Positions 49,896 to 63,896 are shown, counted from the stretch's first letter. The stretch: DNA of 64,000 nucleotides from Sedimentisphaerales bacterium (GCA_963708075.1 OY970194.1:1728001-1792000), one strand, 5' to 3'. Notes: a model not told the origin generated them from the letters alone. A program made the numbers and translations.

Positions 49896-52712
49896 TTAGA
49901 GCCTATTCGCTGCGGCCAGGCTGGACTTGAATTCATAGGAGCCGGGCTGCAATTCCAGCGTTAACTGACCAGGCTGAGCGGAAAGTGGCGTCAAGCCCTT
50001 AGCCTGTGTGAGCGGCTGGTTGCTTTCGGTGACGGTCTTTTCATCGGCCGTCGGCAGGTACAGCGTGGCCGTCGTGTTCGGGGGGACGGTGACATTCAGG
50101 GTCAGGAGCCCTTTGCCGTCGATGCTCCAGTTGCTTGTGATTCGGCCGTAGATGCAGTCATGGTGGGCTTTCACCCATTTGAGGGAGGGGTCGTCCACCA
50201 CACCTGGCTTGATGACAAAACGCTTGAAGCCGGGGGTCTGCGGGTCGGTCTTGATGCCGGCCAGGCCCTCGATGAACCAGGTGCCGATGTACAGGTACGA
50301 GCTGTGGCAGAGGGAGTTGTCCATATCCCACGATTCGTACATCGCCGTGGCGCCGCTGCGGAGCATATCACCCCAGCCGGGATAGGTGTCCTTGTTCGCC
50401 ATCGCAAAGAGCAGGTCCTGGCGGTCCAGAGCGAGCAGCGTCTTGTAGAGGAACGCGCCGCCCGTGATGCCGGCGTGGATGTGACCCTTGCGGCGGATCA
50501 CGATTTCCTCTTCGAGCCGCTTCTCCACAGCCGGGCGGATGTCCTGCGGCGGAAGGTTCACGAGAAGCGCGATGGCGAGGTATGCCTGGAAGCCATTGAC
50601 ATAACTGCTCTCGGCCGGGATGAAGAACTCCTGATGCACGGCCTTGCGGACCTCGTCGGCGCGGGCACGGTACTTGTCGCCATCAGCCTTCTTGCCGATC
50701 AGGTCAGCAATCGTCGCGGCCGTCTGAAGGTTGAAGATCCAATAGCAGTTGTTATAGAACAGGGTCTCACGTGTATCCCCGTTGACACCTTTGGCGCCCG
50801 GCCAGAGCCAATCGCCGAGGAAGTCCCACTCACCGCCCCACCGTCGCAGGATGTTGTCCTTGGCTTTGGTTTCGAGGAAGGCCAGCCAGCGCTGGATCGT
50901 CGGGAAGTTGTCTTCGAGGATGCGGGTATCGCCGTAACGCTCGTAGATTTCCCAGGGCAGCGTGATGCAGTAGCCGCTCCAGCCGGGCCCGCCGCCGCCC
51001 CAGTACGTCGGGGCCGTGTAGGGCAGGTTGCCGCTTTCGATGGTGTCCTGGACCGCCGCTTTCTCCGCGGTGCCCCAGGCGGCACTGCCGCCCTGCACGT
51101 CGCGCCAATCCTGGCTCCACTTCGTATAGAACGCCCCGAGACCGTAGTTGTTCAGGCCGCACTCCGTGGTCGCGTGCGCGTCGCCGCCATAGCCCATCCG
51201 CTCGCGGTGCGGGCAATCGACGACGTAGCCGCCGAGGCTGAGATCCTCGAACGTCCACAGGGTTGTGTCATAGATCTTGTTCAGCAGTTCGTTCGAGCAT
51301 TCGAAATCCGCTGCACGGGCGTAGTCGGTCCGCACGAGCCAGGCACGCATGTCCTCCACGGCGGGCTTATATTTGAGTCCCTCGACGGTGACCCATCGGC
51401 CAGTGAAATAGTTGAACCGGTTGCGAAACGTCCCTTTGCCCGAGGGTCCGACGATGTACTGGCTGCGCAGCCGGTGCGTCATATCCGCGCTCGGCCGCTC
51501 AGAGAACTTGAATTCGACCGTGTCGCCGGGCTGCCCGCGCAGGTTCGCTTCGAGCCAGCCGGTGACATTGACGCCGAGGTCCACGCGATAGGTGCCGGGC
51601 TTGACTTCCTCCACCGCCACAGGGCGAATCTCCTTGATCCGCCGATTCGGCTCGATCATCTCGGCGGACAGCGCAAGATTCGGCGAGTAGACGATGGCGG
51701 ACTTCCACCCGGAGTCGTCGAACTCCGCGCCGGCCCAGTTGGGGATTTCTTTGTTGGCATCGTACCGCTCACCGCCGAAGTGCATAAAGTCCCACACGCC
51801 CAGCAGCGTATTCGGGCTGGCGTACGTGCGCCACGTGTCATCCGTCACAATCCGGACTGCCTCGGCGCCGGGCACCCTGATATCCGCCTGGGCCAGGACA
51901 ATCGGCGTCTGCGGCCTGTCGTCCGTCTTATACGGCGGGAAGATCGACCAGGAGACGCCCAGCCACAACGCAATGACATTCCCGCCCTGCTTGAGCTGGT
52001 CGGTGATTTCATACGTGACGTAGCGGGCGCGCTTACGGTGGTTCGTCACCGCCGGGGCCAGCACATCGTCGCCGATGCGTTTGCCATTGACATACAACTC
52101 GTGGTAGCCGACGGAGGCCACATAGACCACCGCCTGCTCCGGCTTAGCCTTCAGATCAAACGTTTTGCGCAGCCAGGGGTCCGGCACTTTGTTGTCCGGC
52201 GGGGGAAAGCCCCTGCCCCGGCTGAAGACATCGCTCGTGCCGATCCACTTGCCCGACCAATCGGATTTCTCCAGCAATCCCATGGTCCACCGGCCCGACT
52301 TGCTCCAGGCCGATGTCCTGCCCCCCTCATCCTTGACTCGTACCTTCCAGTAGCACTCCATCCCCGAGCCGAGCGGCTTGCCGCCATAGACGACGTGGAC
52401 CGACTGGCCCGACGAGGCCATGCCGGAATCCCAGAGATCGCCCTTGTCGCCGTCCAGTAGCGTCTTGGCGCTCGCCACGAGAACCTGATAGCCTGTCTGC
52501 CCCTGGCCACGCGATTGCGGGTCCACGGCAACCAGCTTCCAACTCAGTCGCGGCTGCCGCACGTCGATCCCCAGCGGATCGGCCAGGTACTCGCAGCGCA
52601 CGTCGGCCACGGTCACAGAACATTGTCCGCTCGCCGCACTGGCACAGAGTGTGAGCAGAACGACAAAGCATACCATCCACTGCATAGGTCTGTTGATGCG
52701 AGATGCTCTCAT
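49896..52712 (-). CDS. Alpha-L-rhamnosidase (GH78)
   Basis: CEYLADPLGID..PRLSW, DCPHRERMGYGGDA, LGDW, GATAMYESW, SLCH. Confidence 0.92.
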   Translation of the reverse strand: MRASRINRPMQWMVCFVVLLTLCASAASGQCSVTVADVRCEYLADPLGIDVRQPRLSWKLVAVDPQSRGQGQTGYQVLVASAKTLLDGDKGDLWDSGMASSGQSVHVVYGGKPLGSGMECYWKVRVKDEGGRTSAWSKSGRWTMGLLEKSDWSGKWIGTSDVFSRGRGFPPPDNKVPDPWLRKTFDLKAKPEQAVVYVASVGYHELYVNGKRIGDDVLAPAVTNHRKRARYVTYEITDQLKQGGNVIALWLGVSWSIFPPYKTDDRPQTPIVLAQADIRVPGAEAVRIVTDDTWRTYASPNTLLGVWDFMHFGGERYDANKEIPNWAGAEFDDSGWKSAIVYSPNLALSAEMIEPNRRIKEIRPVAVEEVKPGTYRVDLGVNVTGWLEANLRGQPGDTVEFKFSERPSADMTHRLRSQYIVGPSGKGTFRNRFNYFTGRWVTVEGLKYKPAVEDMRAWLVRTDYARAADFECSNELLNKIYDTTLWTFEDLSLGGYVVDCPHRERMGYGGDAHATTECGLNNYGLGAFYTKWSQDWRDVQGGSAAWGTAEKAAVQDTIESGNLPYTAPTYWGGGGPGWSGYCITLPWEIYERYGDTRILEDNFPTIQRWLAFLETKAKDNILRRWGGEWDFLGDWLWPGAKGVNGDTRETLFYNNCYWIFNLQTAATIADLIGKKADGDKYRARADEVRKAVHQEFFIPAESSYVNGFQAYLAIALLVNLPPQDIRPAVEKRLEEEIVIRRKGHIHAGITGGAFLYKTLLALDRQDLLFAMANKDTYPGWGDMLRSGATAMYESWDMDNSLCHSSYLYIGTWFIEGLAGIKTDPQTPGFKRFVIKPGVVDDPSLKWVKAHHDCIYGRITSNWSIDGKGLLTLNVTVPPNTTATLYLPTADEKTVTESNQPLTQAKGLTPLSAQPGQLTLELQPGSYEFKSSLAAANRL

Positions 52713-52833
52713 GCTGGCCTCCTGAATCGGCTGATCCACGGTCCTCACGGGACCACAGCGCGCACGTCACGCTCGACCTGCGCGGACCCGGATTATAGCC
52801 GCGGTCCATGGCCGATGCTACGCAAAAACAGCC

Positions 52834-53013
52834 TTACGGCCGGCCGGGGTCCGGGCGGGACGTGAGTGGATCACCGGGGGCTTCGCATGTCGGGGTGACG
52901 GAGGGTCGCTTGATGCGGACAACGGCTCCGATGAGGACCACGCCGACCCAGACGCCGCTGGCCATGATCAGACCCGCCGCCACGACCACACCGATCATCA
53001 CAGCCGTTTCCAT
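52834..53013 (-). CDS. Small single-TM membrane protein
   Basis: ATG overlaps the symporter TAA; METAVMIGVVVAAGLIMASGVWVGVVLIGAVVRIK. Confidence 0.55.
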   Translation of the reverse strand: METAVMIGVVVAAGLIMASGVWVGVVLIGAVVRIKRPSVTPTCEAPGDPLTSRPDPGRP

Positions 53014-54400
53014 TACTTGGACTCCATGAACAGAGCACTCAGGAAATGCCCAAGGAGGTACGCCGCCAGGGCTGCCGCCAAAGCCAGGAGAATCGGGGGA
53101 ATCTGCACGGCATCGTGCCAGATGAATTGGAAAGACAGGGCAACCGCCGCACCGGTGACCATAGATAGAATGCCTGCCAGGGGACGCGGCTTCTTGAGCC
53201 AAAGCCCGAGGACTGCCGCAGGTAGGATCGCCGGCGCCCAGACGGTGTAGCAGATCAGCAGGCCCCGTATGATACTGGGGACGGCTACCGCGGCCGCGGC
53301 CGCCAAAGCGGCAATGCCCACGGTGGCTGCGCGGCCGCATATGAGCGAGGCCCGATCCGAAATCTTCACGAACGGCCTGATAACGTCCTCCGTGAACGCC
53401 ACGGCCCCGGCGTTCAGGAGCGAGTCCAGGCTCGACATGATTACGGAGAGCAACGCCACCAGCAGTATCGCATAGCCTGCCGGCGGCGTGACTGTCTTGA
53501 CCAGTGTCAAGAGCACATCGTCCTCGCCGGTCCCGGCAGGGATGATCGCGCGCGCGACGATGCCCAGCGAGATCATGATCGTGAACCATACCATGCTGAA
53601 CAGCCCCGCCAGGACGAAACTGTTCCTCGACGCCCCGGTCGTCTGCGTTGCAAGGGCGCGGTTCGCGTAAGGCGGTATCAGGGTCTCGCCGAGAAGAAAG
53701 GCGGCTATCAGTCCGAGGATCTGCACCCAGGAGGTGGATCGAAAGCCCACTGCCGTCGCTGCTGTCAATTCGTAGCTCAGTGCAGCGGCGCCGTCGCGCA
53801 ACGGCACAAACATGATGAACAGGAGGATCACCGGCATGAGGATGGTGAACAGGGTGAACTGCAGAGCGTCCGTCATCACGCTGGCCCGGAGCCCGCCGAA
53901 GCTCGTGTACAGTGTCGTTGCAATCGCAATCAGGACGATCGCGATCCACTTGGAAATCCCGAAGGCGTCCTGCACCACGACCCCGGCGGCATTCGCCATC
54001 ACGGCGGCAAATCCCATGCAGAGGCCTACGGAGATCACGCCCGCCAGGATCTGGCACGTGCGATTGTACTTCTGGCCGATGGCGTCGCCGAGGGTGTGAC
54101 AACCGCTGAGCGACCGCAGTCGCGGCGCAATGAACAGGCCGACGAGGATGTTCTGGAGGGAGTAGGCAAGGCCGACGAACAGGAACAGCAGGCCGCTCTG
54201 GAAACCCTTGCCCGCAAAGCCGATGGAGAAGCCGGGACCCACATACGCGGCGCAGAGACTGCCGAAGATCAGGGCAAGAGGCAGGGAACGCTTCGCGAGG
54301 GAGAATTCCGCATACTCGCGGGCAGCGCGGCGCGCACGGCGACAATCCCGAGAATGATGAGATACCCAGCAACGAGCGCCACCGATGCAACCACACGCAC
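53013..54400 (-). CDS. Sodium:solute symporter family protein, apparent frameshift near 54320
   Basis: EFSLAKRSLP, SFGGLRASVMTDALQF, VIMSSLDSLL; the first TM (GTG at 54400) is in another frame. Confidence 0.85.
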
Positions 54401-54440
54401 TATCCTATCGACAAATCAGACTGCCCCATCCGTGCACGCA

Positions 54441-55523
54441 CTATTTCTCGTGCCCTTCCTGAAACGTTTCCTCCGCCAACTCGCTGATCACGGTATCCAG
54501 ATCGGCTTCCGTGCGAATCCACCCGAACCGCGCATCGACGAGGAACGTGCGGTACCATTGAATGAGGTTCTTGGCGAAGTCCTCGTCCTTGCAGTAGAGT
54601 CCGAACGAGATCTCGCCCGCGTGGACGCCCGCCTTGCGGGGCATTTGGGGAAAGGCCAGCAGCACGGAGCTGCGAGACAGGAGAAACTCAAGGTCGGAAA
54701 CCGTGCTGTTGTAAATCCGCAGCCGGCCCGATTCGATCGCCTCGGCATATCGGCGGAACAGGTGCCGGGCCGCGTTGGAGAACCCCGGCACACTGAGATT
54801 CATCGCACGATGTACCCGGACATCCGGATACTCCTCGAGGATCGTGTGGAGCTGGCTGAGGTAGTCGTCCATGGGCTGCCGCTCCCCTTCGAACAGCATG
54901 CAGGTCCACAGCTCGCCGTTGCCCGTGGCGTCGAGCTGGTCCTGGAGCATATGCTTGGCGACGTCGTAGGTTTCGCGGCGGTTGCCGAGTACCTTCAACT
55001 GCCGGTCCATCAGGGCGGTGGCCCAGGGCGGCATGTCACTCGGCAGCGACTCGGGCGGGCAGACGCCCAGCCGCGTCATCAGACGCAGGAACTGCTTGTG
55101 CTCTGACCCGTAGAACCGCCGACCGACCACACTGCCAACATTTCCATTACATTCGAGACCGTACCTCTTATGGTAGCCGAACGACAGGCGATGAATCTCG
55201 AAGCCCTGTTCGACAAGCATCTTCTCCAACTCCCCGATCAGATGGACCGCCTGCTTCTCCGGGGCCTTGTCGATGGACAGGTGCACGTTCGGGCATAGCA
55301 CAACGGGCCGTTTGCCCAGGAGCTTCATCAGGGCGCCAAACTCGTTGACGGCGTCCTCCAACTCCTGCCGGGCGTCATATCGCTCGATGCAGACGAACAT
55401 CACGAGCACGTCCTTGAAGGTGACCCGCGGCTGCGCCGGTGAGATGGTGGACGGGTCGATCCGCGTGCTCGGCTCTTTGTCTTCAAAGTAACAGGAAGAA
55501 CACTGGTAACTATCCAGGATCAT
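54441..55523 (-). CDS. Archaeal-type threonyl-tRNA synthetase editing (DTD-like) domain fused to an unknown C-terminal domain
   Basis: VLVMFVCIERYD, VVLCPNVHLS...A, GFEIHRLSFGYHKRYGLECNG match the archaeal ThrRS N-terminal editing domain pattern (VxFxxVExxD, YPFAHLS, PFGYYKxFxxxCxGHP). Confidence 0.72.
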   Translation of the reverse strand: MILDSYQCSSCYFEDKEPSTRIDPSTISPAQPRVTFKDVLVMFVCIERYDARQELEDAVNEFGALMKLLGKRPVVLCPNVHLSIDKAPEKQAVHLIGELEKMLVEQGFEIHRLSFGYHKRYGLECNGNVGSVVGRRFYGSEHKQFLRLMTRLGVCPPESLPSDMPPWATALMDRQLKVLGNRRETYDVAKHMLQDQLDATGNGELWTCMLFEGERQPMDDYLSQLHTILEEYPDVRVHRAMNLSVPGFSNAARHLFRRYAEAIESGRLRIYNSTVSDLEFLLSRSSVLLAFPQMPRKAGVHAGEISFGLYCKDEDFAKNLIQWYRTFLVDARFGWIRTEADLDTVISELAEETFQEGHEK

Positions 55524-55544
55524 ATCGTTACGTCGATTCTCTCC

Positions 55545-55853
55545 CTACTGCTGGTTTACCTGGCTTCGGCTGTGTTCCCGCGTTGACGCCTTCGCCTTCT
55601 TCGAGCGAGAGACAATCGCAGCATCAACGCGGGAGATAAAAAGGCCCACATCCGGCGTCACGACGTTGTCCCCAAACCCCGCGCCGTTCATCAGCCGCAC
55701 CACCTCCGTGGCCTCCCAGAAGTCCGGAGATTCGCTGATGCGCTTGGCCTCCTCGCGAGTCAGCGACTTCAGGAAGGTGGGCAGCCCGCCGTCACGAAGC
55801 GAAGCGGCGTAATCCGCCAGTAGCTCCTGGATTTCTCTGTCTGCGTTCGACAT
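55545..55853 (-). CDS. Small hypothetical protein (candidate anti-sigma factor)
   Basis: AAGGAG RBS; 102 aa MSNADREIQELLADYAASL...; directly downstream of the ECF sigma gene. Confidence 0.6.
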   Translation of the reverse strand: MSNADREIQELLADYAASLRDGGLPTFLKSLTREEAKRISESPDFWEATEVVRLMNGAGFGDNVVTPDVGLFISRVDAAIVSRSKKAKASTREHSRSQVNQQ

Positions 55854-55912
55854 CGGTAACTGCTCCTTTACGACCCGTGCAAACTGCACCAGGCAATCTT
55901 GCGAGAAGGCGA

Positions 55913-56485
55913 TCAGCCTTCTTCGCAGTACTCCTGCAACATTCGCCGCAATTTCAAAACCGTCCGAAATTCCAGCATCTTCACCGCGCCGACCGTCGTT
56001 CCCAACTGGGTGGCGATCGCCCGGTTCGACATCCCGGCCATCCACAGCTCCATCGCCTTGCGCTCCCGGGCCTTGAGCTTGCCGAGCATCCGGTGCAGGA
56101 TCTGCTTGAGCTCGGTCTGCGAGAGCAGGTCGCACAGGCCCAGTTCCGGCGCCACAAGGTTCTGCATATCGTTCGCGGACAGGTACGAGCTGCGATTCAT
56201 CCGCCGGTACACCTCGCGGAGGCGCTTCCGCATGTAGTATAGATACACCGTTCGCAGAAGCTGCCTTTCGCTGTCGATGGCCCGCAGATGGTCCGGGTTT
56301 TCCCAGATATCCGCGTACACATCCTCCAGCACGTCCTCGCACTCGACCTCGTTACCGAGATAGCGATGCAGATGCCGTATGAAGATGCCAAAGGTCGATC
56401 TGACAAAAGGCTCCATCGCCCGACGTCGTGACTCGGCGTCGGTGGATGTGAGCTCCTTCAAAGCGTTTCGCAGCGCTTTATCCAT
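55913..56485 (-). CDS. ECF-type sigma70 factor
   Basis: EDVLEDVYADIW (region 2-like); LKARERKAMELWMAGMSNRAIATQLGTTVGAVK (region 4). Confidence 0.85.
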   Translation of the reverse strand: MDKALRNALKELTSTDAESRRRAMEPFVRSTFGIFIRHLHRYLGNEVECEDVLEDVYADIWENPDHLRAIDSERQLLRTVYLYYMRKRLREVYRRMNRSSYLSANDMQNLVAPELGLCDLLSQTELKQILHRMLGKLKARERKAMELWMAGMSNRAIATQLGTTVGAVKMLEFRTVLKLRRMLQEYCEEG

Positions 56486-56755
56486 ACCGGTTACAGCATT
56501 CCCCGATTCTCACTGATTTTCGGCCTCTCCACCGGCAGGAAGACGGGATCAATCCCGCTGCCGTCTGCGGCGGAAGGTGCGAGGTCCGACCCCGCAAATC
56601 TCCATTCTATCGTAGAGATATGAGGAATTCAACCGGTAAACGCCCATGCCTAATGCCGACAAAAGCATCCTCAGAGACACTTCTGAGGATATGACCGACC
56701 CTCTGTCAGATACGAATCAACCAGATCACGTCGAAACCATCTCCTCACTTGACCC

Positions 56756-57226
56756 TCAGAATCCATATGCCGGCCAGAGCTCCTCTTCCGTCGGCAGATG
56801 GTCGTAGAACTCACCGCGCGTGCCGATGTAGCCAATCCCTTGTCTTCGCAGCCGCACCCGGCTGATCGAGCCGTTGCTATTGGTGATGTCCACCGTCACG
56901 TAATCCATTTCCTGCCGCATGTGGACGCGCTCCGTCGGCGTGTGGCTCTTGTCCTCTTCGTTGCCGATCATGTATCCGGCCGCTCCTCCGATCGCCGCGC
57001 CGAGAATTGTGGCTCCCGCAGTGCCGCCAATCACCTGGCCAAGCCCGGCTCCCGCCAGCACTCCTACCGCCGCCCCGGTTTGCGCGGCGGTTCGGCAACC
57101 TGCCGACATCAGCAAACCGGCCGCCATCCCTGCCAGGACGATAGTCCCGGCTCTGCCCGTCGCTACGCCGGACCTTTCTGTGTCCGAAAATGACTCGACG
57201 GCATCGGATGGCTTAGAGCTCATCAT
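56756..57226 (-). CDS. Glycine-zipper lipoprotein
   Basis: SAGC lipobox; GAAVGVLAGAGLGQVIGG..GAAIGGAAGYMIGN. Confidence 0.85.
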   Translation of the reverse strand: MMSSKPSDAVESFSDTERSGVATGRAGTIVLAGMAAGLLMSAGCRTAAQTGAAVGVLAGAGLGQVIGGTAGATILGAAIGGAAGYMIGNEEDKSHTPTERVHMRQEMDYVTVDITNSNGSISRVRLRRQGIGYIGTRGEFYDHLPTEEELWPAYGF

Positions 57227-60107
57227 CGTCCTCTTTGTTGACCGGTGCTTGCTCGGTGGCCTGCGTCGTGGCGGCGCCTGCGCTCAGTTGCGTGGCCGAG
57301 TCCTTCTTCGAAACGTCCAGCAAATCCTTTGCTCCAGTATCCGGAACCTTTTGAGTATCCGGCGTGCTCTCAAGGGAGGATGCTTCAGGGGCGGTCGATG
57401 ATGGAGTCGCTGTGGCGGGGTCTACCTGGGTCGCCGATGACTCCTGAGCCTTGGCGCCCGGCGCAGCTTGCGACTCGGAGCCGGCCTTATCCTTCGGCCC
57501 GGCTTCCTTCTCGAGTTTGTCCACAAGTCTGAGCAGCACAGCCACCGCCTCGGTGTTCTTCGCATCCTGGCCCGCCTTCTCCAGAGGCTCGCGGGCATAG
57601 CCTGTCTCTCCGGTGCCCAGCAGATGGTAACCGAGCAGGAGCTGCAGGTCGGCGTTGTCGCCGGACTCATCCTGCTTGTTCAGCAGCTCCTCAATCTGTT
57701 TGAACAGCACATCGTCATTGGCATACAGGCCACGAGGATAGAAGACGCCTTCCTTCTCCTTCTCGGGCGGAAGCTTCTTGAGGGCCTCTCTCAGCACCTC
57801 CGCGGCCTTGGAGTACTGCTTGTCGGCAAACAAGGCCTGGGCATATGCGAACGGAAGGATCATGTCTTCCGGCGACAGCTCCTTCGCCGTGGCGAACTTC
57901 TCGGCCGCTGTGGCGTAATCGCCAGACTCGAAGCTCTTGACGCCTTCCTCGAACCTTGTATCCGCCTGTGTCTGCGGCGCCGGCTCCGCCGCTCGCTGTG
58001 CCAGTTTCTCACGGACATCGGCATATCCGCTGTCGTCCGTGCTCTGATAGGTGGTCGCGGAACCATCGTCATTGTAATAGTTGTACGTGTAGTAGTTGTT
58101 CGTCTCTCCCGCGACCTCGGTGGCAACGGGGTAGTATCCGTACCACACGTAGGGATGATAGCCATACCAGTAGTACCGCATATACGGGTAGTCATAGGGC
58201 CAGTATCCACCCAGGCTGATGAACACGTACTTGCGATGGTAGTACGGGTACATATAGTCGAACGAGAAATGCGAACCGAAGTGGTAGCCGATCGTGAAGT
58301 AGTACGACGGCCAAATGACCCGGTGACACAGCCGATGATGCATGTCATAGTAACTATAGAGGTGATGGTAATGATGCGAGATCAGGTCCGGCCGGTCATA
58401 GTACGACGCGTGCAGGTAGGGCCGCCGGTAGCTGTAGTCGAAAGTTGTCGGCCGAAGCGTCCGCTCCGCCAGATTCGTGTCGAGGCTTCTCCTCGCAACC
58501 AGATGGTCGTTCAGCCGGGAGCCGAATTGCTGCCGCCGGGCCGTGGCATCCGCCTGCTGTCTCTGCGGATCCAGAGCCACTTTTCCGCGATCACCCCTCT
58601 GACTGATCACTTCGGCCCTGCGACTGGTTACTCGGTTCTGAAGCTCCGAATTCGTTTGTGCGCCGCGGACGGGTTGAGTCGTCGATAGCGTCGGCATCCG
58701 GGTCTGCGAGCCGGTGGATTCGGCCACCTGGCTCTTCTGCGTCTGCTGACCTGTCCGTCGCGCCTGCATCCGCGAAAGCACTGACTTCCTGTCGGTTGCG
58801 GTCCGCTCCGTGGGACTTGTCGTCGTTTTGGGCGAGACGCCCTGCTCTGTCCCTGCCTTCGGCGCGACGATTTGTCGCGACGACGGCGACGGTGCGGATG
58901 TGGATTTCTCCGCCGGGGCCTTCACCTCACCCGTGGTCGATCCATTCCTCGCACCGACGCGGCCCAGGAGCGACCGTCTGTCGGTCGCACTGCCCTCAGA
59001 TGGAGTCTTTGTCGTCTGAAGCGTGCTCTGCCGCGGCTCCAGACTCTGTTTGGACGTCGTCTTCAGGTCTGCGATTCGTCGCGACTGCTGAGGCTGAGTG
59101 GGCGTGGACGCGGGCTTCTCTGCCACCGGGCTCTGCGATTGCTTCGTTACAGATCCGTTCCTGGTGCTAAGACGGCTCAACAGTGAGCGTCTGTCGCCGC
59201 CGGTGTTTGTGGGCGTGCTCTGAACAACAGGGCCCCGCGATGATGGTGGCGGTGTCACCGTCTTTGGCGCACTGGGCGTACTTGCCGAACCCGACATCGG
59301 TTGCCTCGGCTGCACGGTGCTCTGCTGCCGTGCTGCCATGCGATCCACTACAGAGCTGCGCGTCGTGCCGCTATTCATAGATGTATCCGGCGCGGAGGAT
59401 CGCGGCGTCGCCAGGCTCCGCGTGCTGCCGCTCCGGCTGCCAATCGAGCTGGAAATACTCTGATCAGGCGACCTGGAGAGGCCTCCGGATGAGGACGACT
59501 CACTTCGTGGTGCGCTGAATACGCTTTCCGACCGTGGCTGGCTGGAGGGCGCCCATCTGGTGCTGAAATCCCGTGCCGACTCGCGGCTTGGCGCCGGCGC
59601 GGCAGCCGACGGCGCGGACCTGCTCGAAAACGGGCTCGAACGCATCGTGGCCGGCGGGCTGCTCGGCGTCACCGACGGTCGCGAAGGCGTGATCGAAGGT
59701 GGTGCACTCGGTGTAAACGACGGTCTCGAAGGGGCTATCGAACGCGGCGCACTAGGCGTAAACGATGGCCGCGAAGGAGCCATAGAACGTGGCGCACTGG
59801 GTGTAAACGATGGTCTGGAAGGCGCCGCTGCCGGCGGAGGGCTGAACGATGGTCTGGAGGGGGCCATTGCGGGCGATCTGCCGGAGCTGAACGGGGAGCC
59901 TTGGCTGCGAGATGATCCAAAACTTGGACTTGGGCTCGGACTGGGCCTCACAGCCTCGCGCCTTGCTCCCACACTCTGCAGCGCCGCGCTTCGCTCCGAA
60001 GCGGCCCGTGCCAGACGAGAGCCCGATGACCCGATCAACAGGGCCGCCATGAGCGCCACAGACGTTACGGCTGCTCTGCGGTTTTTTCTCTCACCTGCGA
60101 CAAACAT
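57213..60107 (-). CDS. Secreted protein with Ser/Pro/Arg-rich disordered region, Tyr-rich block and TPR domain
   Basis: Signal peptide; low-complexity repeats; YYWYGYHPYVWYGYY block; FEEGVKSFESGDYATAAEKF TPR. Confidence 0.8.
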   Translation of the reverse strand: MFVAGERKNRRAAVTSVALMAALLIGSSGSRLARAASERSAALQSVGARREAVRPSPSPSPSFGSSRSQGSPFSSGRSPAMAPSRPSFSPPPAAAPSRPSFTPSAPRSMAPSRPSFTPSAPRSIAPSRPSFTPSAPPSITPSRPSVTPSSPPATMRSSPFSSRSAPSAAAPAPSRESARDFSTRWAPSSQPRSESVFSAPRSESSSSGGLSRSPDQSISSSIGSRSGSTRSLATPRSSAPDTSMNSGTTRSSVVDRMAARQQSTVQPRQPMSGSASTPSAPKTVTPPPSSRGPVVQSTPTNTGGDRRSLLSRLSTRNGSVTKQSQSPVAEKPASTPTQPQQSRRIADLKTTSKQSLEPRQSTLQTTKTPSEGSATDRRSLLGRVGARNGSTTGEVKAPAEKSTSAPSPSSRQIVAPKAGTEQGVSPKTTTSPTERTATDRKSVLSRMQARRTGQQTQKSQVAESTGSQTRMPTLSTTQPVRGAQTNSELQNRVTSRRAEVISQRGDRGKVALDPQRQQADATARRQQFGSRLNDHLVARRSLDTNLAERTLRPTTFDYSYRRPYLHASYYDRPDLISHHYHHLYSYYDMHHRLCHRVIWPSYYFTIGYHFGSHFSFDYMYPYYHRKYVFISLGGYWPYDYPYMRYYWYGYHPYVWYGYYPVATEVAGETNNYYTYNYYNDDGSATTYQSTDDSGYADVREKLAQRAAEPAPQTQADTRFEEGVKSFESGDYATAAEKFATAKELSPEDMILPFAYAQALFADKQYSKAAEVLREALKKLPPEKEKEGVFYPRGLYANDDVLFKQIEELLNKQDESGDNADLQLLLGYHLLGTGETGYAREPLEKAGQDAKNTEAVAVLLRLVDKLEKEAGPKDKAGSESQAAPGAKAQESSATQVDPATATPSSTAPEASSLESTPDTQKVPDTGAKDLLDVSKKDSATQLSAGAATTQATEQAPVNKEDDDEL
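59665..59865. repeat. 45-bp coding tandem repeat (APSRPSFTPSAPRSx)
   Basis: Units start at 59665, 59710, 59755 and 59800. Confidence 0.85.
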
Positions 60108-60586
60108 GGTTGTCTCCTTTCCTTCCTCCGACGGCACAAGATTCGGCCAGCCCGTTCTGCCGCCGGCGCCCCACACGTCTTATCGTGGGATTGCGATACA
60201 GGATAATACTTCAAAATACTATAGGCGGCCACTATAAATATACGTGGGAAAAGGGTTTACGGTTTGCAGAAACCTTGTCGAAAGCCCGCAAGCCACCCCT
60301 TTTCACAATCATTACAGCCATCTGCACGCCCCTGACTAACATATCGTCGTGTGCGCTATCTTTTCTACTCTAATAAGGCTCGGCGACTAAGCATGGTAAC
60401 AGGAAAAACGAGGTTTCTTCGACTACCTGCAACTTCCTTTCGGACCATTGGCCACGCATCCAGAACTTGTGCAGGCGGCGGCCCCGACGGGACTTATCAT
60501 GTATCTCGGCGTAGTCAGTCGGGCAGGGGCGAACGGTTCCGTGTGCCCGACGTACCTTTTTGATGGCGTTGGGATAAGATTTTGTC

Positions 60587-60615
60587 TTGACATGGGGGGA
60601 GGCCGCCGGTATTAA
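60587..60615 (+). promoter_or_regulatory. Sigma70 promoter of the rpmF-plsX-fab operon
   Basis: TTGACA-17 bp-TATTAA. Confidence 0.7.
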
Positions 60616-60687
60616 AGGTAGTTTTATACACAGCGTCAGACGAGCACGCTCTGCGAGTGATTAGCAGATGGACTGGAGTACCGAACA

Positions 60688-60876
60688 ATGTTACCAATGA
60701 AAAAAATGAGCCGGAGTGCCGTCAAAATGCGACGGTCACACCATCGACTCAAACCGATCAACTACTCGGTCTGCCCGAAGTGCGATCAGGCAAAGTTGCC
60801 CCATGCGGCATGCGGCAACTGCGGGTATGTACATCCCGGGCTCACCCTGAAACTCGGCAAGGAGGAAACCACGTAG
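60688..60876 (+). CDS. rpmF: 50S ribosomal protein L32
   Basis: KMSRS...RRSH, CPKC..KLPHAACGNCGY; upstream of plsX. Confidence 0.95.
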   Translation: MLPMKKMSRSAVKMRRSHHRLKPINYSVCPKCDQAKLPHAACGNCGYVHPGLTLKLGKEETT

Positions 60877-60878
60877 GC

Positions 60879-61892
60879 ATGCGTATCGCTGTGGATGCCA
60901 TGGGAGGGGACCACGCACCCGACGAAATCATTGTAGGAGCGTTGGAGGCGTTGTCCCGGCTCGATCAGGATGACAGGATCATTCTGGTTGGGCCACAGGA
61001 GCTGTTGGAGAAGAAACTGGCCGATCTGAAATACGACCGGGACCGTGTCAGCATTGCTGATGCGCCGGACGTAATCGCCATGGACGAGAAGCCCATTGAC
61101 AGTCTGCGCCAAAAACCCCGAAGTTCGATTGGGATTCTGGCGAAACTGGCGAAACTGGATCAGGCAGATGCAGTCATCTCAGCGGGCAACACCGGGGCAT
61201 GCGTGGCGGCATTCCAAATGCGAATGCGTACCCTGCCTGGTGTAAATCGCCCCGGCATCGCCGTCGTTTTCCCGACCACGAACGGCCCCGTGACTATTTG
61301 CGATGTGGGAGCAAATATTGCCTGTAAGCCAATCAACCTGTATCAGTACGGGCTGATGGCAAGCATCTACTCGCGGCATTTCCTCAAGGTCCAGAACCCG
61401 CGGGTCGGGCTGATGAGCATTGGAGAGGAAGAGGCCAAGGGCAATGAGATCGTCAAGCGTTCGCGGGAGCTGATGCGCGGCGACTCGCGATTGAATTTCA
61501 TCGGGAACATCGAGGGAAGGGACATCTTCCGCGGAGTCTGCGACGTGGTGGTCTGTGAGGGGTTCGTCGGGAATGTCATCCTGAAGCTCACAGAGGGTGC
61601 GGTGGAGGGCTTGTTCCGAGCCATCAAGCAGGAGTTGAGCCCCTGGTTGGGGCTGATCTTCAAACGGACCATCATGCGGGTCTATCAGAAACACGACTAT
61701 CATGAATACGGGGGGGCTCCCCTGCTGGGCATCAACGGCACGGCCCTGATCTGCCATGGGGCCAGCCGGGCGCGCACAATCAGAAACGCCGTGGTCACCG
61801 CCAAGACCTGCCACACGCAAGGAATCAATGAAAAGATCATGGAGTGTCTCTCGGAAGCTTGCGTAAGGACTTCGGATGCACAAGGAATTTGA
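60879..61892 (+). CDS. plsX: Phosphate acyltransferase PlsX
   Basis: MRIAVDAMGGDHAP, SAGNTGA, DVGAN, GFVGNVILK, GGAPLLG. Confidence 0.96.
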   Translation: MRIAVDAMGGDHAPDEIIVGALEALSRLDQDDRIILVGPQELLEKKLADLKYDRDRVSIADAPDVIAMDEKPIDSLRQKPRSSIGILAKLAKLDQADAVISAGNTGACVAAFQMRMRTLPGVNRPGIAVVFPTTNGPVTICDVGANIACKPINLYQYGLMASIYSRHFLKVQNPRVGLMSIGEEEAKGNEIVKRSRELMRGDSRLNFIGNIEGRDIFRGVCDVVVCEGFVGNVILKLTEGAVEGLFRAIKQELSPWLGLIFKRTIMRVYQKHDYHEYGGAPLLGINGTALICHGASRARTIRNAVVTAKTCHTQGINEKIMECLSEACVRTSDAQGI

Positions 61893-62888
61893 GGATTGCC
61901 CCCTCGCGAACCGCGCCGTGATCACCGGGTGCGGTTCTTTTGTTCCATCGGCGATATTGTCCAATGAAGATCTTGCCCGCAGGGTGGATACTTCGGACGA
62001 ATGGATCACTACCCGGACAGGGATCAAGTCCAGGCACATCACGACGGATGGCGAAACGACCGCCTACCTGGCTACCGAGGCGGCCAGGCGGGCCCTGGCC
62101 TACGCAGGGCTTAGCGGCGAAGATCTCGATCTGATTACCGTGGCGACGATCACCCCGGAAATGGTCTTTCCCTCCACGGCATGCTTCGTTCAGCAGGCGC
62201 TCGGGGCGAAGAACGCGTGGGTCTTCGATCTGGCGGCCGCCTGCAGCGGGTTTGTCTATTCCCTGCACCTGGTCCAGCAGCTCATTGAGAACGGGCGGCT
62301 CAACAATGCCCTGGTGATTGGGGCCGAGACGCTCACGAAAATCACCAACTGGAAGGACCGGACCAGTTGCATCCTGTTCGGCGACGGGGCCGGTGCGATC
62401 GTCCTGCAGCGCAAGGACAATGCCGGCCGAGGTATCATCTACAGTACGCTGGGCGCGGACGGAACTTATTGGGAGTCGCTGAGCTGCCGGGCCCACGGCT
62501 CGCGCCACCCGGTCAGTCGGCCGCTGAACGACCCAGACATGGCCTTCATGCAGATTAAAGGCAGAGAAGTATACCAGCAGGCGGTGCGGCGGATCGTGGA
62601 GGCTGTCACTGACTGCATGGCGCACTGCGGCTTGACCATCGACGATGTCGCCATGGTCATCTCGCACCAGATGAATGCCCGGATCATCGAGTCAGCCGCC
62701 AAGAGGTTGGAACTGCCCCCGGAGAAGGTGTTCGTCAATATTCAGAACTACGGCAATACGTCCGCCGCTTCCGTGCCCATCGCGTTCGATGAATGCATGC
62801 GGCAAGGCAAGCTCAAGAAGGGCGATATCGTGATCTTCGTGGCGTTCGGCGCCGGTGTCACCTGGGCGCAAACATCATCGAGATTTAG
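61876..62888 (+). CDS. fabH: Beta-ketoacyl-ACP synthase III, apparent -1 frameshift near 62865
   Basis: DTSDEWITTRTGI, AACSGF, HQMN, YGNTSAAS; restoring one G gives GAGVTWGANIIEI*. Confidence 0.95.
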
Positions 62889-62960
62889 GCGCCGTCGCCG
62901 GACGACGGAGCGTCGCCCGCGGTGTGCGGGTGTGAACTGAAACAAATAAGGACACGAAAG

Positions 62961-63896
62961 ATGGCGACCGCCTTTCTGTTTCCGGGACAGGGCTCCCAGG
63001 CCGTGGGCATGGGAGCCGACATCGCGACGGCGTTGCCCGCGGCAGCGGAGTTGTTCGGGCGGGCGAACGAGATCGTCGGGTTCGACCTGCGAAAGGTCTG
63101 TCTTGAGGGCCCGGCAGACCGGCTCAACAGCACAACCATGTCGCAGCCGGCCATCTTCGTGACCTCCGCCGCCCTGCTGGAGGTCCTGCGAGCCAGTTCG
63201 GCCGGACAGAACCTCCGCCCCGATGTCACAGCGGGACTGAGCCTGGGCGAATACACCGCCCTGTATGCCGCCGGAGCCATCAGCTTCGAAGATGGGCTCA
63301 GGCTGGTCAAAAGGCGTGGCGAGGCCATGCAGGCCGCCGCCGATGCCTCCGAAGGGATGATGGTGAGCATTCTGGGCCTCGATGAGGACAAGGTGCGGCA
63401 ACTGTGCGATGAAGCCCGCGATGGGGAGTTGCTCGAGCCGGTCAATTTCAATTGTCCCGGACAAATCGTCATCAGCGGTGCGGTTGGCGCCTGCGAAAGA
63501 GCCGAACGTCTGGCGGAGAAGCATGGCGCGATCAAAGCGATCCGGCTGGAGGTTGCCGGGGCCTTTCATACGACCATGATGACGCCCGCGGCACAGGCCC
63601 TGCGGCAAGCCCTTGTGCAAACGCAGATCTCGCAGCCGCAGGCCGTCCGCACGGTCGCCAACATCACGGCCGACTACTATCACGGCCCGGACAGCGTCAT
63701 CGACGGCCTGACGCGACAGCTCACAGGGGCGATCCAGTGGCAGAAATGCATGGAGCGCTTGCTGGCCGATGGGGTCGAGCAGTTTTATGAGATTGGTCCG
63801 GGCAGGGTCCTGACCGGGCTGATGAAACGTATTAACAGGAAGACGAAAGTCACGAACATCAGCGACTTGAGCTCGCTCAAGGCCGTAACTGGATGA
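62961..63896 (+). CDS. fabD: Malonyl-CoA:ACP transacylase
   Basis: FLFPGQGSQ, GLSLGEY, AGAFH, EIGPGRVL. Confidence 0.96.
   Translation: MATAFLFPGQGSQAVGMGADIATALPAAAELFGRANEIVGFDLRKVCLEGPADRLNSTTMSQPAIFVTSAALLEVLRASSAGQNLRPDVTAGLSLGEYTALYAAGAISFEDGLRLVKRRGEAMQAAADASEGMMVSILGLDEDKVRQLCDEARDGELLEPVNFNCPGQIVISGAVGACERAERLAEKHGAIKAIRLEVAGAFHTTMMTPAAQALRQALVQTQISQPQAVRTVANITADYYHGPDSVIDGLTRQLTGAIQWQKCMERLLADGVEQFYEIGPGRVLTGLMKRINRKTKVTNISDLSSLKAVTG

Follow-up and report, generated by a model that had tools for sequence, protein, structure and literature searches.

A 64,000-nucleotide window of a Sedimentisphaerales bacterium genome (GCA_963708075.1, OY970194.1:1728001-1792000; the whole stretch of DNA that was analysed, to which all coordinates refer) contains a minus-strand operon of five genes, the third of which encodes an unusual two-domain protein, fus360. 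Its N-terminal domain (N-domain) has the fold seen in D-aminoacyl-tRNA deacylase (DTD) and in the archaeal threonyl-tRNA synthetase (ThrRS) editing domain, and it is joined to a C-terminal domain (C-domain) with a PLD-like fold that lacks the HKD motif. The gene is flanked by those for an ECF-type sigma factor and a small helical protein (p102) upstream, and by those for an SSS-family Na+/solute symporter and a 59-residue membrane peptide downstream. The DTD/ThrRS-editing fold is a translation proofreading module whose archaeal ThrRS form is held to be specific to archaea; here this known fold stands in a new architecture and in a new genomic setting. A bacterial lineage appears to have taken a member of a little-known free-standing branch, rebuilt its pocket, fused it to an inactive PLD domain and kept it in a sigma/anti-sigma/transporter operon. 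We tentatively read fus360 as a hydrolase of the aminoacyl-tRNA deacylase type.

The sequence-only reading of the window knew of no described system with this arrangement, and a literature search, which covered mostly listings and abstracts, found no publication that deals with the fusion or its PLD-like half, with the operon or with the free-standing branch. That the domain is present is already on record through the NCBI pipeline naming of some members.

Domains and pocket residues of fus360

Pfam model PF08915 (tRNA-Thr_ED) matches residues 28–128 of fus360 (E 1.9e-17; score 64.1 bits, cutoff 30.2), and the distant family members P0123, P0271 and P0124 reach 54–74 bits. NCBIfam models NF003068 and NF011500 also match the N-domain, the latter only at profile positions 26–135 of 387. 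A phmmer comparison with PDB sequences returns the ThrRS editing domains of P. abyssi, M. jannaschii and A. pernix (E 9e-10 to 5e-6, with 2hl1 and 1y2q at ~1e-9). In an AlphaFold2 model of fus360 (67 sequences; mean pLDDT 83.5, pTM 0.56, with pLDDT 81–95 over residues 1–120), the N-domain matches the M. jannaschii ThrRS N-terminal domain (NTD; MjNTD, 4rrf_A) with Z 20.9 and a root mean square deviation of 1.6 Å over 134 residues, and Foldseek gives E ~1e-12 and TM 0.80–0.91 normalised to target. DTD, ATD and DUE-B, which are free-standing deacylases of the same superfold, follow at Z 13.2–15.7 but share only 9–17% identity with the N-domain; a Gly-cisPro motif is described in PMC4880308. The proposal, made from the sequence alone, that the first ~140 residues are of the archaeal ThrRS editing/DTD type is thus borne out by Pfam, the PDB sequence search and the fold comparison. 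PF00587 and PF03129 have no match to fus360 in a Pfam scan, so the protein lacks a ThrRS core or anticodon-binding domain.

In the archaeal ThrRS NTD, Pro80, Phe81, Ala82, His83, Tyr120, Lys121 and Glu134' lie within 6 Å of the scissile bond, and the catalytic group is the substrate's own, the 2'-OH of tRNA A76; H83A and K121M abolish the activity of the P. abyssi (PabNTD) and A. pernix (ApNTD) domains, and a Y120A/E134A mutant retains activity and specificity (all from PMC4491819). Among the aligned full-length members of the fus360 family (66–67 sequences, to which all residue counts refer), the equivalents of these seven positions are P78 (65/66), N79 (64/66, with D in two), V80 (64/66), H81 (66/66), H118 (66/66), K119 (66/66) and residue 132, which is V in 56, I in 8 and T in 3 of 67. 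The F115-G116 loop is, like H81 and K119, present in 66/66, including P0123 and P0124, which are full-length and 43–45% identical overall. The HMMER alignment to the P. abyssi ThrRS NTD has PNVHLS for PFAHLS, FGYHK for FGYYK and CNGNV for CKGHP; GHP is changed to GNV in the main clade (N128 in 63/67), and the distant members keep GH. Judged by these alignments, the adenosine- and ester-positioning part of the pocket has been frozen and the amino-acid-facing part rebuilt, and the side chains beside the seryl moiety or the scissile bond (Phe81, Tyr120, Glu134) are replaced by Asn79, His118 and Val132. fus360 has in common with PabNTD, MjNTD and ApNTD the fold, the Pfam match, the FG loop and residues equivalent to His83 and Lys121, but it is bacterial, differs at these three positions, is joined to a PLD-like domain instead of a synthetase core and anticodon-binding domain, and has a sigma factor and a transporter as operon partners.

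Seven cysteines (C8, C11, C45, C77, C125, C208 and C311) are invariant or nearly so (66/66 or 67/67), the five of the N-domain each being present in 66/66. The PabNTD counterparts of C11 and C77 are positions 11 and 79; because these are co-mutated with positions 42 and 123 in listed biphenylalanine-core designs, C11 and C77 are probably neighbours in the core. A disulfide, metal or redox site is possible.

When 1.84 billion cluster representatives were searched exhaustively with phmmer, only 170 matches at E <= 1e-3 were obtained. Few are full-length relatives (P0121, 71%; P0123, 43%; P0124, 45%), one (P0125, 46%) covers the C-terminal half and, fragments of the fus360 family aside, the remaining matches align only to residues 1 to ~165. 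The best of these N-domain-only matches (E ~1e-11 to 1e-9) are free-standing proteins of 139–177 residues (135–185 for the FG[FY]HK/GHPGSV proteins as a group, e.g. P0140, P0141 and P0154, the last labelled as coming from a Bathyarchaeota metagenome-assembled genome) with the motifs WHC, PF[AV]HLS, SFG[FY]HK and GHPGSV. A motif scan of 133 rows (P0138–P0270) finds His in place of Tyr120 in 29 free-standing proteins of up to 230 residues, in 1/19 of intermediate length and in 0/19 of 500 residues or more. After removal of rows shorter than 125 residues, those with no FG.K in the first 150 residues and five with an internal match, 114 rows went into a quick maximum-likelihood tree; its careful search was unfinished, its support is only moderate and it has a long branch to the fusion. 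In this tree the fusion clade (SH-aLRT 99) falls within a split (94) that holds all 28 free-standing H-type rows and neither ThrRS-attached rows nor rows with an editing and an anticodon-binding domain, and that is itself nested in a 40-row split at 90.

These data are an indication, not proof, that the N-domain comes from an uncharacterised free-standing editing-like branch and not from the ThrRS-attached type. The archaeal ThrRS pattern seen in the sequence-only reading thus stands for fold and profile but probably not for lineage. The substitutions it listed (PNVHLS, FGYHK and GNV) are all present in the alignment; two of the changes, FGYHK and the loss of Glu134, are traits of the branch, since its free-standing members already carry FG[FY]HK and GHPGSV. 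Asn79, GNV (main clade only) and three extra cysteines are specific to the fusion. The free-standing FG[FY]HK proteins resemble fus360 in having His for Tyr120, GSV for LAE/LSE, Cys8 and Cys45 and in their side of the tree, but they are single-domain proteins that keep PFAHLS and GHP and lack Cys11, Cys77 and the C-domain. With 29 clusters among the motif-scanned rows, this branch deserves biochemical attention whatever the function of fus360. A metagenomic protein of 381 residues (P0145) has an N-domain of the same branch (hhalign columns 1–136 only) followed by ~230 residues with a Walker-A-like GSPRSGKS; this C-terminal part is unrelated to the PLD-like domain of fus360.

Behind the N-domain, a linker with helices at 141–151 and 166–173 (pLDDT 67–78 in the AlphaFold2 model) leads to the C-domain. 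Residues ~174–339 match TrmBL2 (5bpd, Z 12.1 over 138 residues) and TrmB (2f5t, 12.1; 3qph, 11.4), followed by NucT (11.3), Nuc (10.7), FAM83B DUF1669 (10.7) and Zucchini (9.0–9.9); the chains concerned include 6ehi (11.3), 1bys (10.7) and 5lzk (10.7), and more than 20 PLD-superfamily chains match residues ~173–340 at Z 6.3–12.1. The TrmB/PLD-like character suggested earlier for the remainder of the protein accordingly holds at the level of fold. The match is confined to TrmB residues 110–241 and TrmBL2 residues 125–264, and the C-domain has neither the winged-helix DNA-binding domain nor the sugar-binding beta-barrel of TrmB; the protein ends ~20 residues past the PLD-like domain. HxK is absent, and the position of HxK(x)4D, placed by the order of strands and not by superposition, reads Y271-N-S273...E279, invariant in 67/67; R239 and N242, like Y271, S273 and E279 individually, are also present in 67/67. 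The C-domain is therefore modelled as a catalytically dead PLD fold.

Sequence similarity to TrmB/TrmBL2 or to other families is lacking: fus360 has no TrmB Pfam match, the C-domain belongs to no Pfam family, a 27-sequence profile of it reaches at best E 0.46 against the PDB, the best ESM Atlas score (0.86) is below the 0.9 lead level, and a profile search of a large protein collection recovers only its own family in the best 120 of 445 matches. The C-terminal tail is strongly acidic (isoelectric point 4.05; 7 D/E against 1 K/R) and is covered by a model helix at 339–359. A degenerate synthetase core with an anticodon-binding domain was considered for the C-terminal half and ruled out, given the PLD fold and the restriction of NF011500 to the N-domain. 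The protein that this candidate was modelled on, crenarchaeal ThrRS-ED (A. pernix ThrRS-2; NF011500, a Ser-tRNA(Thr) hydrolase), is like fus360 stand-alone, with ~390 residues and an N-terminal editing domain, but its C-terminal part is a remnant synthetase core with an HGTP anticodon-binding domain.

Sigma factor, p102 and conservation of the operon

The sigma factor consists of regions 2 and 4 only and matches Sigma70_r4_2 (PF08281, 32.7 bits against a cutoff of 25.7) and the ECF model TIGR02937 (55.1 against 42.9); Sigma70_r2 (PF04542) stays below its cutoff (18.2 against 24), and no sigma subgroup model reaches cutoff. The adjacent p102 matches no Pfam or NCBIfam family and no anti-sigma family profile. 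Its AlphaFold2 monomer model has five helices at low confidence (pLDDT 64.7), and Foldseek finds nothing for it at E <= 0.001, RseA appearing only at rank 15 (E 7). The predicted complex of sigma and p102 scores ipSAE 0.81 against 0.00 for the best of three controls, a mark reached by 116/157 solved complexes and 2/215 mismatched pairs, although these counts hold only approximately because our own alignments were used; runs share at least 92% of contacts, with partner pLDDT of at least 79. In the model, p102 contacts sigma residues 21–62 and 145–183, with helices 1 and 3 on 169–180 (region 4) and helix 4 on region 2, although the prediction may pass through likeness to sigma/anti-sigma complexes already solved. 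p102 is best read as the predicted soluble anti-sigma of this sigma factor, clamping regions 2 and 4. The gene adjacency and the placing of p102 between regions 2 and 4 in the predicted complex resemble ECF sigma/class I anti-sigma pairs such as sigmaE-RseA, but p102 consists of sigma-binding helices and a basic tail, without a membrane segment, a zinc or Cys motif, a sensor domain or a profile match, and the promoter is housekeeping-like. A contig from run X4 (a related strain, 90–95% alike) has a 5-nt insertion behind position 55545 at the p102 stop codon, which reflects strain variation in the tail.

Paralogues of p102 with 38–56% identity occur elsewhere in related genomes (L087–L096), and p102 is one of a lineage-specific family of small helical proteins. 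One paralogue lies beside a sigma paralogue and an AAT/C45-like secreted protein (L089), two beside a DHDPS-family enzyme and a different SSS symporter (L092, L094), and four after VIT-VWA proteins and near PEP-CTERM proteins (L087, L090, L093, L096). The cassette is thus reusable with other cargo, an enzyme and a symporter being a recurring neighbour. A promoter motif common to the regions upstream of the paralogues was not found.

A scan of GTDB species genomes gave 115 relatives of fus360, of which 80 loci (69–88% identity) were kept, and a metagenome scan added 80 further loci. Counted where enough flanking sequence was present, p102 is directly upstream of fus360 in 77/77 genome and 72/72 metagenome loci (149/149 in total), the sigma gene is upstream on the same strand in 70/70 and 64/64 (134/134), and the symporter gene is downstream on the same strand in 66/66 and 59/60 (125/126), the one exception being a partial match. 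Recurrence of this arrangement in 160 related loci is far beyond chance. A lack of conserved gene order elsewhere had been named beforehand as a ground for abandoning the proposed module; the order is instead kept.

Median identities are 75.8% for fus360, 71.4% for sigma, 64.0% for p102 and 62.4% for the symporter, and fus360 exceeds sigma in 132/140 loci, p102 in 147/150 and the symporter in 129/129. The lineage has kept fus360 under strong purifying selection. Its gene is single-copy in 102/201 sampled genomes of the GTDB family of the window (39/90 of the high-quality ones), being present or absent genus by genus (40/91 genera), and p102 follows the same pattern (99/201 genomes, 40/91 genera). 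Among 400 other genomes across the phylum there is only one weak N-domain match (G225:C110:2214-2582; E 1.3e-6, 29% identity), and the fusion appears to be limited to one GTDB family and to occur almost nowhere else. The weak match lies inside a 642-codon open frame of another Planctomycetota genome, which may encode an archaeal-type ThrRS. Record titles are mostly those of Sedimentisphaerales, Phycisphaerae and Planctomycetota metagenome-assembled genomes, with a few Pirellulales, one Aegiribacteria and one Solirubrobacterales; we take the last three labels to be binning or labelling noise. The divergent member P0123 has only one further relative (P0271), and the 80 loci of the metagenome scan all belong to the main clade (41–46% identity to P0123).

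Possible functions of fus360

The reading that we favour, though with less than even confidence, is that fus360 is an aminoacyl-tRNA-deacylase-type hydrolase with a new acyl specificity, encoded as cargo and linked to import by the symporter. A deacylase or a ligand sensor for an imported unusual amino acid had been proposed from the sequence alone; both stay hypotheses here. A housekeeping-type promoter would drive the sigma factor, p102, fus360, the symporter and a one-helix accessory peptide; sigma and p102 would form the regulatory cassette, and fus360 and the symporter its cargo. The DTD-fold pocket would hold a 3'-aminoacyl-adenosine end, with the conserved His81 and Lys119 positioning the ester and a water molecule, and the rebuilt pocket (Asn79, His118, Val132) would exclude Ser-tRNA(Thr) in favour of a different acyl group, probably a non-standard one, which results from solute import by the co-transcribed symporter. 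Dimerisation or docking would be the role of the inactive PLD-like domain.

This deacylase-type cargo is favoured because the p102 cassette is reusable and because the residues frozen in the pocket are the ones on which hydrolysis by the archaeal enzymes depends. fus360 is the most conserved gene of the operon, which in our view is commoner for enzymes than for lineage-specific regulators. The operon block also ends exactly after the small peptide, with different genes downstream, which we count for the same reading. A precedent is provided by the canavanyl-tRNA deacylase CtdA, a free-standing homologue of an aminoacyl-tRNA synthetase editing domain that guards against the non-protein amino acid canavanine; the logic is that proposed for fus360, but CtdA has the PheRS B3/B4 fold and its activity is shown experimentally (PMC12449066). 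A deacylase function would point to a non-standard amino acid or other acyl group that sediment anaerobes must keep from their proteins. The CtdA gene is reportedly placed in a canavanine-utilisation cluster.

Several points weigh against a deacylase. The hydrolase activity is one that we infer from residue patterns. In PabNTD a cross-subunit Glu binds the alpha-amino group of the substrate; this Glu is among the residues lost (Val, Ile or Thr in fus360), as is the His of GHP in the main clade. fus360 is acidic (isoelectric point 5.63) and contains no known tRNA-binding domain, the anticodon-binding domain of crenarchaeal ThrRS-ED being absent, and archaeal NTDs in isolation have weak activity at low concentrations (PMC4491819). 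The genome encodes a bacterial ThrRS with a TGS domain and the N2 editing motifs HxxxH/CRGPH as well as a DTD (194 bits), so fus360 fills no gap in standard proofreading; compensation for an editing-less ThrRS or a missing DTD was ruled out on the same grounds. The operon also has no catabolic enzyme that would explain the import of a toxic analogue.

The absence of a sensor domain from p102 further leaves room for fus360 as the signal input, the best of the alternatives although we consider it unlikely. The pocket would bind a ligand without turnover, which could be the transported solute, the 3' end of a charged tRNA or a molecule resembling an aminoacyl-adenosine, and the PLD-like domain would capture or release p102 in a partner switch that sets sigma activity. 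The bare architecture of p102, its invariable position directly before fus360 and the co-occurrence of the two genes across genomes and genera are consistent with such a role. So is the presence of TrmB and FAM83B DUF1669 among the structural neighbours of the C-domain, as these are inactive PLD folds that act as ligand-sensing or scaffold modules, and the five invariant N-domain cysteines could supply a metal or redox site. However, p102 paralogues occur without a fus360-like neighbour, which argues that this type of anti-sigma does not generally depend on fus360; the retained pocket residues are those that position ester and water for hydrolysis; and the conserved promoter is of the housekeeping and not the autoregulated ECF type. 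A more specific version, which we rate as very unlikely, has the pocket reading an aminoacylated tRNA 3' end or aminoacyl-nucleoside and titrating p102 through the dead PLD domain. It would constitute a new kind of ECF pathway, in which translation quality or amino-acid status directly sets sigma activity and the level of a dedicated symporter.

The lack of an RNA-binding domain and the acidity of fus360 would also suit a small-molecule esterase that involves no tRNA, although we regard this as quite unlikely. The substrate would be the imported solute, an aminoacyl or acyl ester of a ribose or sugar with a neighbouring hydroxyl, and the operon a minimal salvage or catabolic module. In this fold the vicinal 2'-OH assists catalysis and few protein side chains are required (PMC4491819), which makes esters of other cis-diols conceivable as substrates. 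The nearest solved relatives of the symporter are sugar transporters (vSGLT 2xq2 at 61 bits, then SGLT1/2), the sugar-sensing regulator TrmB is among the best structural neighbours of the C-domain, and a parallel cassette combines a DHDPS-family enzyme, an SSS symporter and a p102 paralogue. These arguments are offset by the weak family assignment of the symporter (PanF and PutP models at 54–67 bits, far below their cutoffs), by the occurrence of glycoside hydrolases next to the operon in only some loci, and by the restriction of the TrmB match to the PLD-like subdomain. It is the beta-barrel subdomain of TrmB, absent here, that provides most of the sugar contacts. We also know of no member of the DTD/ThrRS-editing fold that acts on a non-tRNA substrate in cells. 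Use of the fold either as a sensor or as a small-molecule esterase would be the first known to us.

That the five genes have no functional link and remain together only through close kinship of their carriers is highly improbable. All carriers do fall in one GTDB family, and an upstream gene for a TPR protein is syntenic as well (73/84 loci), but order and orientation are kept in 125–149 of 126–149 loci while identities drop to 41–67%, the DNA just downstream differs in the majority of divergent loci, the gaps are 21–59 nt or the genes overlap, and promoter-like and terminator-like sites bracket exactly these five genes. Least probable of all is an ordinary Ser-tRNA(Thr) trans-editing factor of the crenarchaeal ThrRS-ED kind acquired from archaea, for which the PF08915, NF003068 and NF011500 matches, the fold shared with PabNTD, MjNTD and ApNTD and the automatic NCBI name 'threonyl-tRNA synthetase editing domain-containing protein' on some records can be cited, but against which stand the placing of the domain in the free-standing FG[FY]HK branch (a motif found in 0/19 ThrRS-length matches) by a split that excludes ThrRS and editing-plus-anticodon-domain rows, the replaced side chains beside the seryl group or scissile bond, the missing anticodon-binding domain, the editing domain retained by the host ThrRS, and gene partners that are a sigma factor and a transporter rather than translation genes.

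Transcription unit, symporter and neighbouring genes

The five genes form what we read from their layout as one transcription unit (56632–52829, Table 1), with intergenic gaps of 59, 21 and 40 nt in gene order and a one-base overlap of the last two genes. This agrees with the earlier description of five co-oriented, closely spaced genes, amended in that the symporter gene is split by an assembly frameshift. PADLOC defence-system models have no match among the five proteins. Among the 20 public runs listed, none that holds this sequence is of RNA.

Table 1. Features of the fus360 operon and its borders in the 64,000-nt window.
Feature	Coordinates	Strand	Basis or remark
Terminator-like hairpin, ending the upstream Gly-zipper gene; 10-pair stem, then T-rich tail	56666–56691	-	Consensus scan
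Sigma-70-type promoter, TTGAAT-17 nt-TAGAAT	56604–56632	-	Consensus scan
5' leader, ~118 nt	56486–56603	-	Between promoter and sigma start codon
ECF-type sigma-70 family sigma factor, 190 aa	55913–56485	-	PF08281, TIGR02937
p102, soluble all-helical protein, 102 aa, predicted anti-sigma	55545–55853	-	Complex prediction; no family match
fus360, whole open reading frame, 360 aa, two-domain, read as cytoplasmic	54441–55523	-	PF08915 and fold searches
fus360 N-domain, residues 1–139, DTD-fold, ThrRS-editing-like	55107–55523	-	PF08915, fold matches
fus360 helical linker, residues 140–173	55005–55106	-	AlphaFold2 model
fus360 C-domain, residues 174–340, PLD fold without HKD motif, TrmB/TrmBL2-like	54504–55004	-	Fold matches
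fus360 acidic C-terminal helix, residues 341–360, and stop codon	54441–54503	-	Composition, AlphaFold2 model
SSS-family Na+/solute symporter, split by a 1-nt assembly deletion near 54328	53013–54400	-	PF00474
59-aa single-helix membrane peptide	52834–53013	-	Sequence; no family match
Terminator-like hairpin closing the unit	52829–52846	-	Consensus scan

The promoter is the only promoter-like site found by the consensus scan in 52500–57400. Because matches in the promoter and terminator scans are no more frequent than in shuffled sequence, the weight of these sites rests on position and conservation. Of 69 regions upstream of homologous loci, 57 contain TTGAnn-N16-18-TAnnnT; TATAAT occurs in 25 and TAGAAT in 18. 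The conserved promoter looks like a housekeeping type rather than an autoregulated ECF type. The hairpin upstream of it forms the upstream border of the unit. Leaders are mostly 90–130 nt long across homologous loci. Rfam has no match in the leader (at E <= 1, 52000–61000 contains only two chance rows elsewhere), and RNAalifold finds 0 pairs and no consensus structure in a joint alignment of 49 leaders; these two results give no sign of a riboswitch or T-box in the leader. By eye, GC-rich hairpins just after the -10 box recur in leaders of close relatives, and a hairpin containing GTGCCTTT recurs in those of more distant ones.

The symporter matches PF00474 (101.4 bits against a cutoff of 22.8) and, below its cutoff of 184, TIGR00813 (111–112 bits); no SSS equivalog model comes near its cutoff. 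Its frame is broken in the window, with the first helix in a 43-aa open reading frame (54269–54400) and the other 409 residues in another frame. All 12 homologous symporter loci inspected have one open frame of 465–496 codons, and in two public freshwater-sediment runs of the same study, possibly the source sample (X1 and X2, each with a single covering contig at this position), one extra G behind 54328 restores the frame, which identifies the break as an error of the assembly rather than a sign of a pseudogene. The essential thrS gene of the same genome (L081, G000:C1:2528852-2533513) is also frameshifted, at the HxxxH motif: one frame holds the TGS domain and '...EVMRHS', and a second frame everything from 'AHVLAEA...' on. 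Two such breaks point to systematic indel errors in this single-contig assembly of 7.5 Mb, and open reading frame calls elsewhere in the window need care.

The hydrophobic 59-aa peptide has no family match in Pfam or NCBIfam, and its ATG overlaps the symporter stop codon. A hydrophobic open reading frame of 30–95 aa follows the symporter in 114/120 loci, with the shared motif SG[IV]WVA[IV]AL.

Beyond the small peptide the genes vary among loci and include mannitol dehydrogenase/DUF4432/PfkB, URO-D, PriA, a MacB-type ABC transporter, alkaline phosphatase, GH97, GH78 with a fucosidase, and UxaC. In the window a GH78 alpha-L-rhamnosidase gene (49896–52748) lies downstream, an arrangement common only to closer relatives. 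Upstream, two further minus-strand genes (56756–60176) encode the TPR protein counted above and a Gly-zipper protein that is syntenic in 43/84 loci; both are separated from the operon by the terminator-like hairpin and the promoter. The Gly-zipper protein has 156 residues, and the TPR protein (987 residues) begins with a signal or transmembrane segment and also has a long region rich in Ser and Pro, a block rich in Tyr and His, and TPR repeats. Three divergent plus-strand open reading frames lie further upstream (60657–63896), and their translations we take to resemble plsX, fabH and fabD.

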